A stretch of DNA of 64,000 nucleotides from Candidatus Gastranaerophilales bacterium (lineage in GTDB: Bacteria > Cyanobacteriota > Vampirovibrionia > Gastranaerophilales > Gastranaerophilaceae). The notes beneath the pieces were generated by a model, which ran no database searches, was not told where the DNA came from, and saw only the letters and a list, made by a program, of their open reading frames with translations. Below, in pieces: positions 58,142 through 64,000 of the stretch (within the stretch, counting starts at the first letter, position 1; every line of letters starts with the position of its first letter). A program made the translations under genes and the position numbers. Location: the NCBI GenBank assembly GCA_910587245.1, contig CAJULX010000010.1, forward strand, positions 5,069-69,068, in the 5' to 3' direction.

Positions 58142-58711
58142 ATGGGTATTTTTATAAGAACTTTAATTGTAACCGTTATTTTTTGTTTAGGGTATTTTGC
58201 GTGGGTTTATTTTTCAAAAGAGGCTTTCAGCCCTGAACTGCAAATAACGGGTGAAGCTAAAAATGTTGTGGTTCAAGATAAGACACCTGAAGAAACCTCT
58301 GAAACCGAAAATAAAATGAAAGATATAAAAATTGCTTTTTTAACAGGTGAGAATACCGTTGAATATGTTTCAAGAAAAGCAAAAAATAAAACCTTATACA
58401 GTGCCTTGGGCTTGCTTTTAAAAGGACCAAGCGAAGAAGAAAAAGCTCATGGAATTTTTACTGAAATTCCCTCAAATGCGCGTCTTATCTCTGTTAAGAA
58501 AGATGAAGCCGATAATTCCATAATTATTAATTTGACTCAAGAATTTGGTGAGGGCGGCGGTACACAGTCAATTCAGGCCAGACTGGATCAAATTGTTAAG
58601 ACTGTAAATGCTAATGCAGGACACATTCCCGTTTACCTTTATTTGGATGGTAAAAAGGCGCAATATCTCGGAGGAGAAGGGATTTATATTGAGCAGCCTA
58701 TAAACAGATAA
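58142..58711 (+). CDS. GerMN-domain protein
   Basis: 189 aa with an N-terminal TM segment. LLLKGPSEEEKAHGIFTEIP...INLTQEF is the GerMN pattern. Confidence 0.65.
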   Translation: MGIFIRTLIVTVIFCLGYFAWVYFSKEAFSPELQITGEAKNVVVQDKTPEETSETENKMKDIKIAFLTGENTVEYVSRKAKNKTLYSALGLLLKGPSEEEKAHGIFTEIPSNARLISVKKDEADNSIIINLTQEFGEGGGTQSIQARLDQIVKTVNANAGHIPVYLYLDGKKAQYLGGEGIYIEQPINR

Positions 58712-58928: not shown

Positions 58929-58984
58929 TGAACTTAATCGTAGGCGCAATTTTGATTGAGCAGATTTAAGATAAACAATTTCTC

Positions 58985-59017
58985 GAGGTGATTTTTATTA
59001 AAAGCACCTCTTTTTTT
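58985..59017 (+). terminator. intrinsic terminator
   Basis: GAGGTG-N14-CACCTC followed by TTTTTTT. Confidence 0.6.
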
Positions 59018-59155: not shown

Positions 59156-59422
59156 CTAAAGCCAAAACATATTGCGAACTGAACCAAAGTGCGTGTTTGT
59201 GTTGCTGCCGTCTGTCCACGTGGTAGCGCAGAACCTGCTCCAATACCATCCGCCTCCATTCAAGTAGTAAGCTGTATATGCCTTACCACCGTCTGTGCAG
59301 TTAGTGGTGTCGGTATAGGCCGTAGAAGACCATACGTGGTACGGGTTCCAAGCCTGCTTACTTGCGCTGATACCCTGGTTCGGACAGTGCGGCGTACCGC
59401 TCACGCTGGAGTTGTTACACAA
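59156..59422 (-). other. silent C-terminal cassette C1 (lectin-fold variable module)
   Basis: Encodes CNNSSVSGTPHCPNQGISASKQAWNPYHVWSST...FGSVR. There is no ATG (only a TTG), and no RBS or N-terminal pilin part. A 1-nt insertion before the 3' box changes CCFGF to NMFWL. Confidence 0.85.
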
Positions 59423-59478
59423 GTAATTGAGAGATTTCTTGTCTTTTATAATAAATTTTTCATTAAAAAGAAAACTTA

Positions 59479-59564
59479 AGCAATTTTTTGCTATCTCCCG
59501 ACGGGTTAGAAAAGTGCCTTAAATCTGTCTGTGCTCGTAAGCGCAAACACTCTTTTAAAGGCAC
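59479..59564 (-). repeat. inter-cassette structured element E1 (unclassified; candidate RNA or ssDNA fold)
   Basis: Minus-sense structure: P1 GUGCCUU/AAGGCAC, P2 GUUUGCGC-UUACGA-GCACAGAC, the 18-mer AACCCGUCGGGAGAUAGC, and P3 AGCAA/UUGCU. Confidence 0.6.
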
Positions 59565-59617
59565 TTTTAAAAAAGCAAAATATACTATAAAAATATAACA
59601 TAAAAAGAAACTTATTT

Positions 59618-59878
59618 TTATTCAAAGCCAAAACGACAACGAACTGAACCAAAGTGTGTCCAGCCATCAGTTTTCGTGGTAGCGCAGAACCAATTGACCG
59701 CCCAGGTGGTACCATCCAGATAGTGAGTCCTGTAAGCCGCCCCGCTGTCCGCGCAGTTACTGTGTGTATAGGGCGTAGAAGACCATACGTGGTACGGGTG
59801 GTGATTCTGCTTACTTGCGCTGATATACTGGTACGGACAGTGTGGTGTCGAGACATTTGTATTTTTGCCTCTAAAATT
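59618..59878 (-). other. silent C-terminal cassette C2
   Basis: The open frame has no Met: NVSTPHCPYQYISASKQNHHPYHVWSSTPYTHSNCADSG...THFGSVRCRFGFE. The ORF track only shows an out-of-frame ORF here. Confidence 0.85.
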
Positions 59879-59933
59879 TTAAGAAGAATTTTTTATTTTT
59901 CGTTAAATTTTTTAACAAAAAACCTTTATTTTA

Positions 59934-60019
59934 AGCAATCTTAATAAAAATTGCTATCTTCTGACGGGTTGAATCCCTTATCTGTCTGTATCCTTAAATA
60001 CAGACACTCTATTAGGGAT
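59934..60019 (-). repeat. inter-cassette structured element E2
   Basis: P1 AUCCCU/AGGGAU, P2 GUCUGUAU-UUAAGG-AUACAGAC, AACCCGUCAGAAGAUAGC, and P3 AGCAAU/AUUGCU. Confidence 0.6.
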
Positions 60020-60051
60020 AAAGTTTCTTTTTTTAAGATATAAACCTTTTT

Positions 60052-60285
60052 AAAGCCAAAACAACAACGAACTGACCCAAAGTGCGTGTAGCCATTGCTT
60101 GCCCACGTGGTAGCGCAGAACCCATTGATAGCCCAGCTCGTACCATCTAAGTACCAAGCGTAGTAAGCCTTACCGCTGTCCGTACAGTTACTGCTTGTAA
60201 AGGCCGTAGAAGACCATATATGGTTCGGGTGCTGATTCTGCTTACTTGCGCTGATACCCTGAGCCGGACAGTAAGATGTTGCATT
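60052..60285 (-). other. silent C-terminal cassette C3
   Basis: An in-frame TAA at 60286-60288 is followed by NATSYCPAQGISASKQNQHPNHIWSST...THFGSVRCCFGF. There is no Met. The frame stays open through the downstream element to 59941. Confidence 0.85.
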
Positions 60286-60344
60286 TTAAAAGAAGAATTC
60301 TTTTTTGGCAGGTAAAATTATTCACCTGTCAAACTATAATATTA

Positions 60345-60452
60345 AGCTGTAAAATCTCTTATAATTTTAATTTTACTGCTATCTTCCGACGGGTTAAAAA
60401 GCTCATAAATCTGCTGTTATCCTTAAATAACAGCACTCTTTTAAAATGAGCT
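60345..60452 (-). repeat. inter-cassette structured element E3
   Basis: P1 AGCUCAU/AUGAGCU, P2 GCUGUUAU-UUAAGG-AUAACAGC, AACCCGUCGGAAGAUAGC, and P3 AGCAGUAAAAU/AUUUUACAGCU. Confidence 0.6.
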
Positions 60453-60508
60453 TATAGGTTTATTTTGTATTAATTGCTTTTTACAATAAGTTATTTAGTT
60501 TTCAATTT

Positions 60509-60814
60509 TCATATTTTGTGAAACATATTTTCTTCAAAGCCAAAACTACAACGAACTGATCCAAAGTTTGTGTAGCCATTTGTATGCGTGGTAGCGCAGA
60601 ATCCGCCCAAACTCCAGCTCGTACCATTTAAGTTCCAAGCGTAGTAAGCCTTACCGCTGTCCGTACAGTTAGAAGTAGACCAACTATTTGTATAGGCCGT
60701 AGAAGTCCATATGTAGTTCGGATACTGGGCCTGCTTACTTGCGCTGATAAGCTGATGCGGACTGCTTTTACAGATTATAAAAGCTACACGGAAGAATTTT
60801 TCATTATTCTGCAA
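60509..60814 (-). other. silent C-terminal cassette C4 (homology 60536-60772)
   Basis: Encodes CKSSPHQLISASKQAQYPNYIWTST...NFGSVRCSFGF. It lacks about 8 codons (SVSGTPHC) of the 5' box. It shares 33 identical nt with the expressed gene. Confidence 0.85.
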
Positions 60815-60855
60815 ATTCTTTGCAAATTAATGTTCCTGAATTTTTAAGAATATTA

Positions 60856-60931
60856 AGCAATTTTTGCTATCCTCCGACGGGTTGAAGTTCCTTTACCTGC
60901 CTGTACCCGTAAGTACAAAACACTCAAAAGG
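60856..60931 (-). repeat. inter-cassette structured element E4
   Basis: P1 CCUUU/AAAGG, P2 UUUGUAC-UUACGG-GUACAGG (two G-U pairs in minus sense only), AACCCGUCGGAGGAUAGC, and P3 AGCAA/UUGCU. Confidence 0.6.
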
Positions 60932-60950
60932 CATGCTTCACATTTTGAAA

Positions 60951-61256
60951 TTAAGGCGACCTTATAAAGCCAAAACAACAACGAACTGACCCAAAGTGCG
61001 TGTAGCCGGGTTCCGTAGGGTGTGTGCTCACGATTGTGGTAGCGCAGAACCCGCCCAGAACCATGCTTGTACCATTCAAGCCGTAAGTGCGGTATGTTGT
61101 ACCGCCTGTGCAATTGGCAGTGTCAGTATAGGTCGTAGAAGTCCATATGTGGCTCGGCCACTGACTCTGCTTACTTGCGCTTATGTTCTGTGCCGGACAG
61201 TATGGTACACCGCTCACGATAGTGTGGCTACACCCACTTTGCGGAAGAATTTTTTT
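60951..61256 (-). other. silent C-terminal cassette C5
   Basis: Encodes GCSHTIVSGVPYCPAQNISASKQSQWPSHIWTSTTYTDTANCTGGTTYRT...HFGSVRCCFGF. It is the closest match to the variable part of the expressed gene. Confidence 0.85.
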
Positions 61257-61298
61257 TCATGACGGAAAATTTTTCCCGACCCAATTTTGCAATTATTA

Positions 61299-61385
61299 AG
61301 CAAATCTTTTTTGCTATCTTCCGACGGGTTATAAGGCGCTTGAATCTGTTTGTATCCTTAAATACAAACACTCCTTCATTTTGCC
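61299..61385 (-). repeat. inter-cassette structured element E5
   Basis: Split P1 (GGC..GAA / UUC..GCC), P2 GUUUGUAU-UUAAGG-AUACAAAC, AACCCGUCGGAAGAUAGC, and P3 AGCAAA/UUUGCU. Confidence 0.55.
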
Positions 61386-61395
61386 CTTTTATTCT

Positions 61396-61665
61396 AAAGC
61401 CAAAACGAAAACGAACTGAACCAAAGGTCGTGTAGCCTGGTGCTGTTGCGTTCGTGCTCGCATATGTGGTATCGCAGAACCAACCAAGCTTCATACTTGA
61501 GCCGTCCAGATACCAGATATGGTACGTAAGACCGCCACCACTACACTTGCTCGTGTCAATATAAGTCGTAGAAGACCATAAGTGGTTCGGGTACTGACGC
61601 TGCTTACTTGCGCTGATACCCTGTGACGGACAGTACGGTACATTGCCTGCACTAAGCTGTCGCAC
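61396..61665 (-). other. silent C-terminal cassette C6 (5'-truncated, abuts C7)
   Basis: Encodes NVPYCPSQGISASKQRQYPNHLWSST...TFGSVRFRFGF. It starts 15 nt after the C7 stop and has no leader element. The track ORF runs on through element E5. Confidence 0.8.
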
Positions 61666-61680
61666 TTTATACCGCCTTTG

Positions 61681-62028
61681 CTACTTTTTTATTCTAAAGC
61701 CAAAACAACAACGAACTGATCCAAAGTGCGTGTTGCCATTTGTGTTCGTGGTAGCGCAGAACCCATTGAGTGCCCAGCTCGTACCGTCTAAGCGCCAAGC
61801 GTAGTAAGCCTTACCGCTGTCCGTACAATTACTTGATGTATAGGCCGTAGAAGACCATATGTGGTTCGGGTACTGATTCTGCTTACTTGCGCTCGGCCAC
61901 TGTGCCGGACAGTACGGTATACCGCTCACGCTAGAGTAGCTACACCAGCTCATTTTAGAAGAATTTTCCTTCAAACCGATGAAATTTTCATCAGCTGAAG
62001 TTCCTGAATTTTCAAGAATATTAAGCAT
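61681..62028 (-). other. silent C-terminal cassette C7 (homology 61681-61947)
   Basis: Encodes WCSYSSVSGIPYCPAQWPSASKQNQYPNHIWSST...HFGSVRCCFGFRIKK. The core site is altered (GCTCGGCCAC instead of GCTGATACCC). Confidence 0.85.
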
Positions 62029-62121
62029 TTTTATGATTTACAAAAACTGCTATCTTCTGACGGGTTAGAATATACCTGAATGTCTGCCTGCGCCCTTGAG
62101 CACAGGCACTCTTTTTTCAGG
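62024..62121 (-). repeat. inter-cassette structured element E6
   Basis: P1 CCUGAA/UUCAGG, P2 GCCUGUGC-UCAAGG-GCGCAGGC (G-U in minus sense only), AACCCGUCAGAAGAUAGC, and P3 AGCAGUUUUU/AAAAAUGCU. Confidence 0.6.
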
Positions 62122-62270
62122 CTGATTTTTTTTAATTTTTTAGAAAAGTTTGGAAAAAAGTTAAGTTTTTATCGCTTTTTTATCTCCTCCTTTTTGTTAC
62201 AAAACTACATACAAGTCTGAATTTTTAGTTTTAACTCAACATGGCAAGAACTTTTTGTCTTTATAAAACT

Positions 62271-62492
62271 TTATCTTCCAAAGCCAAAACTACAACGAAC
62301 TGACCCATACTGCGTGTAGCCGGGTGCAGGTGTATACGTGCTCGCAAGCGTGGTAGCGCAGAACCCGCCTGCACCCCAGCTGGTACCATTCAAGCCGTAA
62401 GCGCGGTAAGCCGCGCTGCCTGTACAAACCTCCGTACTATAGGTCGTAGAAGTCCATACGTGGGCCAGGTGCTGTTTTTGTTTTTCCTCCAA
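62271..62492 (-). other. silent C-terminal cassette C8 (5' box degenerate)
   Basis: Encodes EEKQKQHLAHVWTSTTYSTEVCTGSAAYRAYGLNG...QYGSVRCSFGFGR. The ISASKQ core has been replaced. Confidence 0.8.
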
Positions 62493-62630
62493 AGTAAAAA
62501 TTGCTGAATTATTTTATTTTTACCATATAAAAGCCAAAGAATTAGAAACCAAATCAATAAACGTATCTTTATATCATTATTGAAAGGTTGCTCAAAATCC
62601 CATTTTTCTTTAATGAAATTTTGTGCCCTA

Positions 62631-62706
62631 AGCCCCACAGGGAGCTATCTTTGGACGGGTTGAAAAATCTTCTCTGTTAACACCCTTAAGCATTAACACT
62701 CCAAGA
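62631..62706 (-). repeat. inter-cassette structured element E7
   Basis: P1 is short (UCUU/AAGA). P2 is GUUAAUGC-UUAAGG-GUGUUAAC with two G-U pairs. The 18-mer is AACCCGUCCAAAGAUAGC. P3 is AGCUCC/GGGGCU. Confidence 0.55.
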
Positions 62707-62923
62707 AATAAAGTTTTACATTTTAGTACTTTAGCCCTTTTAACGCGTTTAGTCAATATTCTTCACAAAATGTTACATTATTGAAAATAGATTTCAATAT
62801 GGTATACTTCATAAAAGAAAAGTTGGAAAACATTTTTGATGTTTCTCGCTTATGTGCGCGGGAAATATTTAAAAAAGTTAAGTTGTTTTATCGTAAATAG
62901 TTTACACAAGGTTACATGTAAGT

Positions 62924-64000
62924 ATGAAAAAAGTTATTTTTTCGCATGCCAAAAATATTGCATGCAAAAATTGCGGCTCAAAACGTCGCAAAGCATTTTC
63001 ACTTGTTGAAATGCTGATGGCTCTTCTGGTAGCTTCGTTATTGCTTGCGGCTCTTGCCCCTGTAATGACAAGAAAAATGACAGAGGATAAAGTCAATGTT
63101 TCGGGTAGTTTAACTGACAGTATCTACCATGAGTACAAGGTTTTTACAAACCTCACAACAGGAGATGGCAATAGTGCTAATAAAGAGTACGAATTCGAAT
63201 TTCCACCAAACACCGATGAAACGGATGCTACGAGATTCGGTGCGATTATAGTTGCAGGGGGTGGCGGAGGTGCCGGCGCAGCTGCTTCTGATGTCAGAGG
63301 GCCAAAAACCCTTTCTTTTAATCAGGGCAATGCGGGAGGCTCTACCTCTTCTACAACAAGCGCTGTGTCATTGCCTTCGTATACCGATTACAGATTTAAC
63401 AGGTATACGGATTCAATAAAGCTGACTATTGTTAGCGGCGCAGGCGGCGGCGGCGGCGGAAACGGCGTGACTAAGACGGAAACACCGGAACTTAGTCAAT
63501 CCGTTTGCGCGGGCTATGGTATGGGAAAAACAGATACCACGGGGCATGTTGGTACTGTTAATTCTCCGCTTATCGTCTACGATTCAGCTAATAATATGTG
63601 CGTCTCAGCGTATAATCAGATTTCTTCAGGTACAAGGACTTCTCCAAGTCCGAGCCAGCCATATTGTACAACCTATTCATACAGTGGTTTTTCTACGCCG
63701 ATTTGTATGAAAGATGGTGCGTTTAATGCGTGCAACGCATTTAAGACGGCCATGGGCGGAAATATGAATTGGAGATTGCCTACGCAGACTGAGCAGTCAA
63801 AATGGACAGCGACGTTTGTTGGAAGAACAATTGCGGCAGGCGGTCTAGGTGGGTGTAACCACTCCAGCGTGAGCGGTACACCGCACTGTCCGCATCAGCT
63901 TATCAGCGCAAGTAAGCAGGTTCACGATCCGTACCACATATGGTCTTCTACGACCTATACTGACACTGCCTTTTGCACAGGCGGTACGACATACCGCACT
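62924..64000 (+). CDS. type IV prepilin-like surface protein with Gly-rich middle region and DUF1566/FISUMP-like lectin-fold C-terminus (3' end beyond window)
   Basis: An ATG at 62924 opens a frame with no stop for 359 codons to the window end. It is missing from the ORF track because no stop is reached. The N-terminus KAFSLVEMLMALLVASLLLAALAP is a prepilin cleavage/methylation-type segment. AGGGGGAGA and SGAGGGGGGNG are glycine tracts. NWRLPTQTEQSKW is the DUF1566/FISUMP hallmark. From 63851 onward the gene is homologous to cassettes C1-C8. Confidence 0.85.
   Translation, partial: MKKVIFSHAKNIACKNCGSKRRKAFSLVEMLMALLVASLLLAALAPVMTRKMTEDKVNVSGSLTDSIYHEYKVFTNLTTGDGNSANKEYEFEFPPNTDETDATRFGAIIVAGGGGGAGAAASDVRGPKTLSFNQGNAGGSTSSTTSAVSLPSYTDYRFNRYTDSIKLTIVSGAGGGGGGNGVTKTETPELSQSVCAGYGMGKTDTTGHVGTVNSPLIVYDSANNMCVSAYNQISSGTRTSPSPSQPYCTTYSYSGFSTPICMKDGAFNACNAFKTAMGGNMNWRLPTQTEQSKWTATFVGRTIAAGGLGGCNHSSVSGTPHCPHQLISASKQVHDPYHIWSSTTYTDTAFCTGGTTYRT
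63443..63457 (+). repeat. (GGC)5 trinucleotide repeat inside the pilin-like gene
   Basis: GGCGGCGGCGGCGGC encodes part of the SGAGGGGGGNG tract. Confidence 0.9.

Follow-up and report, generated by a model that had tools for sequence, protein, structure and literature searches.

Why should a bacterial gene stand beside a row of partial copies of itself that lie on the opposite strand and lack a proper start? The question is raised by a 64,000-nucleotide stretch of DNA (the window, meaning the whole stretch that was analysed) from Candidatus Gastranaerophilales (Melainabacteria), a host represented by metagenome-assembled genomes (MAGs) from the mouse gut. Near the end of the window a plus-strand gene beginning at 62924, here called the target gene, encodes a protein with a prepilin-type N-terminus, and eight cassettes on the minus strand are homologous to part of it. 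A reading made from the letters of the window without database searches (the sequence-only reading) had likened this arrangement to the silent donors of pilE/pilS and vlsE/vls or to the R64 shufflon. We conclude that the locus is probably a diversity-generating retroelement (DGR) in which 29 template cassettes take the place of one and cassette choice is combined with adenine hypermutation; we give this reading a probability of roughly 0.78.

The target gene and its silent cassettes

The AAAGCCAAA anchors of all eight cassettes were found on the minus strand, at 59158, 59624, 60052, 60536, 60966, 61396, 61696 and 62280, as the sequence-only reading had listed them; a ninth copy of AAAGCCAAA, at 62530, is unrelated to the cassettes. 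Translation in the anchor frame gave a common module, (C-x-x-SSVSG)-x-P-x-CP-x-Q-x-x-SASKQ ... WSST ... C ... FCATT ... FGSVRC-FGF. The two conserved boxes proposed for every cassette are present with one exception, C8, which is truncated at its 5' end and has no CP-x-Q/SASKQ box. A repeat search found direct-repeat families with 6-8 copies among the window cassettes, and inverted repeats of 73-152 nucleotides (nt), 81-89% complementary, between the cassettes and 63849-64000. In C2 and C3 the homologous frame has no start codon and there is no open reading frame of ≥ 40 amino acids (aa). The in-frame starts of C1, C4 and C6 are solely TTG or GTG, which had been seen for C1 and C6 and holds for C4 too.

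The target gene is complete in an extended contig, where it encodes 853 aa; its end would fall at window position 65485. Its N-terminus matched the prepilin families PF07963 N_methyl (E 1.5e-5; 23.5-24.8 bits, cut-off 21.2) and TIGR02532 (18.3 bits, cut-off 16.3), and the protein also matched Gly_rich_2, so that the description of a prepilin-type protein with Gly-rich stretches stands. The module shared with the cassettes had been taken for the C-terminus. It is internal, spanning residues ~312-393, and 460 Gly-rich residues come after it. The stretch of the target gene that would be replaced comprises codons 312-389, ~235-265 nt.

Fixed donors and a variable expression site

Public contigs for comparison (given here as L001 onward) were located by means of the 189-aa protein encoded at 58142-58711, which is present on many of them. 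L001 is base-for-base equal to the window (window position = L001 + 48141), and the complete locus is present in L004, a contig of 682 kb, and in L005. Comparison of the window with L001, L002 and L003 showed 0-1 single-nucleotide polymorphism per 12.9-15.9 kb, all other differences starting at 63858, inside the expressed module. The expressed module was different in every genome, while the cassettes of the window and of L001-L005 were 100% identical. The arrays on both sides of the target gene were likewise identical in L004, L005 and L001 except for scaffold gaps; an apparent array polymorphism between L004 and L005/L001 was rejected, as these runs of N account for the difference. Since array order and sequence are the same in all genomes, transfer must be non-reciprocal, from a template that is unchanged to a variable region (VR) that changes. 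That one expressed gene is served by many silent donors, as the sequence-only reading had supposed, is supported.

The same picture was obtained at the protein level. The 90%-identity cluster of the target protein has 30 members, and in the 15 of them that were aligned residues 1-311 and 394-853 were invariant, while residues 312-389 were hypervariable and contained indels (total length 848-858 aa). At the 5' edge variation begins immediately after GGTCTAGGTGGGTGT. At the 3' edge homology runs through TTCGTTGTGTTTTGG and is followed by GGGCCGAACC in the VR versus CTTTAGAAT in the cassettes, a boundary that, by analogy, appears to resemble that between the initiation of mutagenic homing (IMH) sequence and IMH* of DGRs. 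A GC-rich hairpin with a 7-bp stem (CGGCTCC-GGA-GGAGCCG) lies in Gly codons ~35 nt 3' of the VR (L004 11224-11246, ~window 64147-64169). It recalls the hairpin found close to the target sites of DGRs, but folds no better than shuffled sequences (z -0.19). Three independent assemblies have a contig boundary at or in the VR: L002 and L015 at their ends (that of L002 corresponds to window ~64125) and L019 at its start. Such breaks are consistent with the presence of several VR alleles in one sample.

A DGR reverse transcriptase heads the array

Extension of the contig, proposed in the sequence-only reading as a way to find the gene end, further cassettes and a recombinase or reverse transcriptase (RT), was decisive. 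In L004 and L005 the array is headed by genes for a bAvd protein (125 aa) and an RT (447 aa), ~7 kb beyond the 3' end of the target gene, avd being 17 nt upstream of the RT gene. The RT matched RVT_1 (60.3 bits, cut-off 29.6) and its translation contains IGNLTSQ and YVDD; it thus has the signature of the DGR clade ([I/L/V]GxxxSQ in motif 4, YxDD). Its closest solved structure is 8ub7_A (E 2.7e-33), which we take to be the RT (bRT) of BPP-1, the table entry reading 'Reverse transcriptase', 328 aa; the next is a group II intron RT (1e-7). The neighbouring protein matched PF22296 bAvd (45.7 bits, cut-off 40) and the NCBIfam model DivGenRetAVD (E 2.4e-12), the latter match falling below the curated cut-off of the model. 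A tRNA gene (Rfam tRNA, 48 bits) is found just upstream of avd on the same strand (L004 21403-21490, minus).

The eight cassettes of the window are only part of the set. There are 29 in total, 8 upstream and 21 downstream of the target gene, all on the minus strand, and many of those downstream are fused head-to-tail in continuous reading frames. In minus-strand order the locus reads avd, RT, C29 to C09, the target gene (on the opposite strand) and C08 to C01 (C8 to C1 of the window). The 183-, 184-, 165- and 178-aa 'genes' 3' of the target gene in L004 are runs of fused cassettes. C13 (L004 14049-14300) is the sole cassette with the 5' flank of the target gene, GGTCTAGGTGGGTGTAGC (a 20-nt exact match, '..GLGGCS'), and may be a retro-copied or duplicated piece of that gene. 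The locus is flanked by infB, rbfA and truB and by ompH and an acyltransferase gene, which are chromosomal housekeeping genes.

Mosaicism and adenine-directed change

Exact-match tiling resolved each VR into perfectly matching runs of 10-54 nt, contributed by several cassettes and by both arrays. When nine VR DNA sequences were compared with the 29 cassettes by a copying (jumping-alignment) model, 2132 nt were resolved into 41 segments with 77 mismatches. All nine VRs were mosaic, with ~3-6 donor segments each (about 4), and the inferred segments were up to 143 nt long.

The mismatches were concentrated at donor adenines. These accounted for 59/77 (77%) to 62/79 (78%) of the mismatches, A making up 25.5% of the donor path (binomial p 9e-21), and the result was stable across jump costs 2-3. 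The spectrum was A>G 39, A>T 15 and A>C 5, with only 5 changes in the reverse direction (N>A). Altogether 62 of 547 donor A sites were changed, half of them in AAT/AAC codons and 13 synonymously. Donors with A mismatches numbered at least 12 and came from both arrays (C01, C03, C04, C05, C07, C10, C12, C20, C21, C24, C27 and C29). Directional A-to-N change relative to so many cassettes implies that those cassettes are themselves reverse-transcribed. Genuine DGRs typically have ≥ 75% of their mismatches at template A (Roux et al., PMC8144416), a level that is reached here only if several cassettes are allowed as templates.

Two controls were negative. In one, each cassette was treated as a pseudo-VR and compared with the other 28; this gave ~11 segments per cassette and 613 mismatches, 25% of them at donor A (p 0.25); in the other, differences between cassettes were without A bias. 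A single master template repeat (TR) was sought among C28, C29, C07 and C01 and was rejected, the differences of the other cassettes from each of these not being A-biased.

A structured RNA between the cassette groups

The spacers are by no means featureless, containing a conserved 18-nt motif (minus sense AACCCGTCRGRAGATAGC) and covarying hairpins. L004 has 14 copies of the motif (0 expected), one of which overlaps with the final codons of the RT gene. A copy stands ahead of each of 14 cassette groups, in which the first cassette is of the long form and the rest are fused short forms. On the 5' side, 13 of the 14 copies have a variable outer helix (P1), AGAGUG, a hairpin (P2, loop UUAAGG) and CAGA, and on the 3' side the motif is followed by a hairpin (P3) and then GCUUAA. 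Compensatory changes were found in 9 of the 10 pairs of P2 (24 copies, three species), which is rich in G-U pairs possible only in the RT/cassette sense. The P1 arms of one copy form more stable duplexes with each other than with the arms of other copies (-7.6 versus -3.4 kcal/mol on average, p 9e-9).

One copy (L004 9091-9192, window 62014-62115) gave a weak Rfam match to RT-7 (25.5 bits, E 0.0027). This does not reach the gathering threshold of RF03028 RT-7 (116.8 bits) and indicates resemblance only. RT-7 and RT-10 are RNA motifs described by Weinberg et al. 2017. The spacer element shares with the RT-7 consensus AGAGU, a hairpin with a UCAAGG loop, AGA and AUUC..UAACCC, and it adjoins an RT gene; it differs in having 13-14 copies in one locus and in being without two long central parts of the model. 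From these features we infer that the element would be the cis-acting RNA of this DGR. A scan of metagenome contigs for AACCCGTCRGRAGRTAGC returned 70 single-copy matches without RT, Avd or cassette homology, which were discarded as chance.

A working model and its rivals

In the mechanism envisaged for a multi-template DGR, the cassettes would be transcribed in the RT sense, as groups parted by the conserved three-helix RNA that distantly resembles RT-7. RT and Avd would reverse-transcribe them, misreading template adenines, as the A-to-N bias suggests, and the cDNA would replace the homologous stretch at codons 312-389, in keeping with unchanging donors and with transfer to the expression site. 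If the GGGCCGAACC/CTTTAGAAT edge acts as IMH and IMH* do, it could explain why the cassettes are never overwritten. The mosaics observed might be formed from partial-length cDNAs or by switching of the RT between cassettes. The outcome would be length variants and scaffold changes through cassette choice, with point hypermutation in addition; the first two of these are beyond a classical DGR with one template. The more specific proposal, that one DGR RT serves all 29 silent cassettes, each group being a template unit of its own with an RT-7-like module, and that copy-choice mosaic cDNAs are hypermutated at adenines, is offered tentatively, as we place it slightly below even odds.

The main rival is that two systems share the site, segmental gene conversion of the RecA type assembling the mosaics and a separate DGR with a single TR (C29 or C28) adding the A mutations. 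Inverted, start-less and partly head-to-tail fused cassettes, together with mosaic VRs, do look like the donor arrays of vls and pilS, and C29 and C28 come just after the RT gene, where a canonical TR would lie. However, a one-TR DGR overwrites the VR from its 3' end inward, and C28 and C29 provided the 3' part of none of the nine VRs. A-specific mismatches were found relative to at least 12 donors, among them C04, C05, C07, C10 and C27, and plain gene conversion cannot yield these; the A bias, next to a DGR RT and Avd, rules out plain conversion of the pilE/pilS or vls kind, which the sequence-only reading had named as a parallel. Moreover, the RT-associated motif has 13 further copies, with its RNA helices kept, between the cassette groups. 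We consider a combination of two systems unlikely, at odds of the order of one in eight.

A much less probable explanation is an ordinary single-template DGR whose other cassettes are dead by-products, either old duplicated TRs or retired VR copies. The cassettes are indeed start-less and C8 is truncated, and loci that have numerous VR-like repeats, and two TRs at most, are known from DGR surveys (PMC6642488). Against this, VR lengths differ, as is seen in proteins of 848-858 aa; many different cassettes are represented in the VRs, by exact runs that reach 54 nt and inferred segments that reach 143 nt; A-only differences from a single cassette account neither for the other cassettes nor for the VRs; and conservation between species extends to the cassette boxes and the spacer RNAs. 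VRs that carry the sequences and lengths of other cassettes, taken with the failure of C28 and C29 to appear as 3' donors, lead us to regard a one-template DGR as ruled out in practice.

Slighter still is the chance that the VR was mis-assembled from 29 similar repeats in short-read MAGs. The contigs that end at or in the VR (L002, L015 and L019) and the N-gaps in the array of two assemblies might suggest this, but at least 17 independent assemblies have in-frame, full-length VRs between identical unique flanks, contig breaks at the VR are also expected from VR heterogeneity within a sample, and mis-assembly cannot make directional A-to-N substitutions. Finally, a shufflon-like swap of cassette cores, by site-specific or homologous inversion between inverted boxes, has almost nothing left to recommend it: the cassettes are inverted relative to the gene and have 5' and 3' boxes in common with it, but their order, orientation and sequence are the same in all genomes though the VR differs, no recombinase was found among the called genes ≤ 10 kb either side of the target gene in L004 (these two results together rule inversion out), the module is internal, so that a single inversion could not swap it, and the A bias would be left unexplained.

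Several points weigh against a multi-template DGR. Transcription of the cassettes and their use by the RT are deduced from sequence patterns alone. Only ~11% of donor adenines were changed, a density well below that of BPP-1, and this would require either strong selection or a more faithful RT. Mismatches at positions other than A, 18 of the 77, may stem from donor segments too short to be resolved. As MAG consensus sequences, the VRs could be chimeras of co-existing alleles, which would inflate mosaicism. The 3'-most donors C10, C17, C20 and C24 lie inside fused groups, where the spacer RNA is not directly behind them, so priming by that RNA can be put forward only as a candidate role. In L012, from a related species, the adenine-bias test gave no clear outcome with only 8 cassettes on an 11-kb contig.

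The fold of the VR domain is a further such point. The Lcl_C/DUF1566 match in the target protein is weak (E 1.4e-3 to 2.7e-3), and Lcl_C was significant in 6 of 40 homologues (best 7e-6). An AlphaFold2 model was confident over the VR domain (pLDDT 85-94), and a C-type-lectin fold was not confirmed, since Foldseek searches of PDB and BFVD with the full-length model gave Gly-rich-domain matches only. A sequence search of the domain against PDB gave no match, and a single-domain model made without an alignment was unusable (pLDDT 33).

Relatives

Comparison with related genomes, also suggested in the sequence-only reading, revealed the same architecture in two related species. In one (L012/L014) the target protein is 75% identical, synteny and motif are the same, and there are 6 upstream and at least 2 downstream cassettes; in the other (L015) there are 12 upstream cassettes and the contig stops just after the VR. 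In a different species, L019 (2865-4547, minus) encodes an RT and an Avd that are 72% and 90% identical, respectively, to those described here, beside the 3' part of a target gene of the same family; no cassette or TR was detectable on this contig, which starts at the end of the VR.

The target protein belongs to a very large family of pilin-like paralogues. A few Gastranaerophilales/Vampirovibrio MAGs (L013-L086) have many loci each, with a near-identical prepilin N-terminus, AFSLVEMLMALLVASLLLAALAPVMT, and among the paralogues with AFSLVEMLMALLVASLLLAALAPVMT a cassette array was seen with the target gene only. The paralogue P0003 (71% identical) has unrelated surroundings and is without a cassette array.

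Features of the window

The coordinates of the locus within the window are collected in Table 1. Promoter candidates between the target gene and the upstream array are consensus matches and constitute weak evidence: one on the plus strand (62781-62808) faces the target gene and two on the minus strand (62797-62770 and 62756-62728) face the upstream array.

Table 1. Features of the target gene and upstream cassette array, in window coordinates
Feature	Position	Strand	Remarks
Target gene: prepilin-type N-terminus, Gly-rich regions, weak Lcl_C/DUF1566-like domain	62924-64000	+	First 359 of 853 codons
Variable region, codons 312 onward	63857-64000, on to ~64105 in extended contig	+	
Cassette C1, long type including CxxSSVSG part; last unit of upstream array	59156-59422	-	Identical in L001, L002 and L004
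Structured spacer RNA element: P1, AGAGUG, P2 hairpin, CAGA, motif AACCCGTCGGGAGATAGC at 59490-59507, P3 hairpin, GCUUAA	59465-59575	-	
Cassette C2, no in-frame start	59622-59845	-	Donor of 24-41-nt segments to VRs of L001 and L002
Structured spacer element (motif 59953-59970)	59925-60020	-	
Cassette C3, no in-frame start	60050-60275	-	Donor with A mismatches
Structured spacer element (motif 60378-60395)	60335-60460	-	
Cassette C4, most A mismatches of any donor	60534-60770	-	120-143-nt segments in 4 VRs
Structured spacer element (motif 60866-60883)	60845-60945	-	
Cassette C5, long type	60964-61234	-	Donor of 3' part of the window's own VR
Structured spacer element (motif 61313-61330)	61290-61385	-	
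Cassette C6, fused directly behind C7, same group	61394-61640	-	
Cassette C7, long type	61694-61946	-	Donor with 5 A mismatches
Structured spacer element (motif 62049-62066); copy with weak Rfam RT-7 match	62015-62125	-	
Cassette C8, 5'-truncated	62278-62490	-	
Structured spacer element, first of upstream array (motif 62644-62661)	62625-62725	-	
Candidate divergent promoters	62728-62808	both	Consensus matches only

A 145-aa 'gene' in public MAG annotations (window 61228-61665, minus) corresponds to C6 and a spacer read from a GTG and has no Pfam match; it is probably an annotation artefact. Outside the array, TTAAGATAAACAATTTCTCGA at window 58960-59010 runs into a GAGGTG...CACCTC hairpin and has two more copies in L019 (1820-1840 and 2723-2743), possibly representing a common terminator or an element like the repetitive extragenic palindromes (REP).

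Comparison with known systems

The locus has much in common with the DGRs of Bordetella phage BPP-1 and of the chromosomes of Legionella, Treponema and Bacteroides. Shared features are an Avd protein and an RT of the DGR clade (IGxxxSQ, YVDD), adenine-specific directional mismatches between an unchanging template and the VR (77-78% at A), a sharp end of homology at the 3' edge of the VR, and structured RNA adjoining the templates; a VR in an Lcl_C/DUF1566-like ligand-binding domain of a surface protein may be another, the match being weak here. A classical DGR changes only the adenine-templated positions of one fixed-length template. Here, in contrast, the single TR per RT is replaced by 29 cassettes that diverge by all substitution types and by indels, at least 12 of them with A-specific mismatches and none explaining the VRs alone, and each VR combines several templates in a mosaic of variable length. 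The templates and RT are on the strand opposite to the target gene, with templates on both its sides; the templates have A throughout and not only in AAY codons, with only ~11% of A sites altered; and another 460 residues follow the VR domain, which is internal.

Lcl_C/DUF1566 is among the target domains in a DGR survey, which also reported DGRs with numerous VRs and a case of two TRs, the most templates that we found reported (PMC6642488). As family members match this domain, the claim of the sequence-only reading that the cassettes belong to a different fold with no described system is doubtful. In a literature search of limited coverage, neither an array of divergent templates nor cassette mosaics turned up for any DGR, and the multi-cassette use of a DGR looks undescribed.

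Likeness to Neisseria pilE/pilS, Borrelia vlsE/vls and Treponema pallidum tprK lies in the single expression site, in the many silent, start-less donors, inverted relative to the gene and some of them fused head-to-tail, and in the non-reciprocal segmental transfer that produces mosaics while donors are unchanged. To our knowledge, those systems work by DNA recombination without an RT and make no adenine-specific errors. Here an RT and Avd head the array and, where faithful copying would be expected of such donors, the copies carry A-to-N errors. The R64 shufflon and other invertible C-terminal segments (Rci, Cin/Gin, Min) likewise have inverted alternative segments beside a pilin-type or fibre gene, but here the called genes include no recombinase, there is no inversion, and the segment is internal and is copied rather than swapped.

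Significance

Two mechanisms of bacterial surface variation hitherto treated as separate, silent-cassette conversion and retroelement hypermutation, would be joined in this one locus. Compared with the single template of a classical DGR, 29 divergent templates would add length variants, framework changes and recombinant scaffolds, giving a far larger reachable sequence space. If a single RT does use all 29 cassettes, one retroelement would carry out both shuffling of the vls/pilS type and DGR point hypermutation.

There are also practical consequences. DGR finders assume one TR near the RT, and such loci would probably be rejected or be labelled as having one TR and many VRs. The RT-7-like RNA, repeated and covarying, forms a natural variant series for the RNA needs of a DGR RT, and multi-template designs could serve DGR-based tools for directed evolution.

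For the mouse-gut Melainabacterium, the assemblies compared reveal one surface protein that differs while the flanking ~10-16 kb are near-invariant, and this points to strong diversifying pressure on the target protein, exerted by immunity, by phage or through the tracking of ligands.

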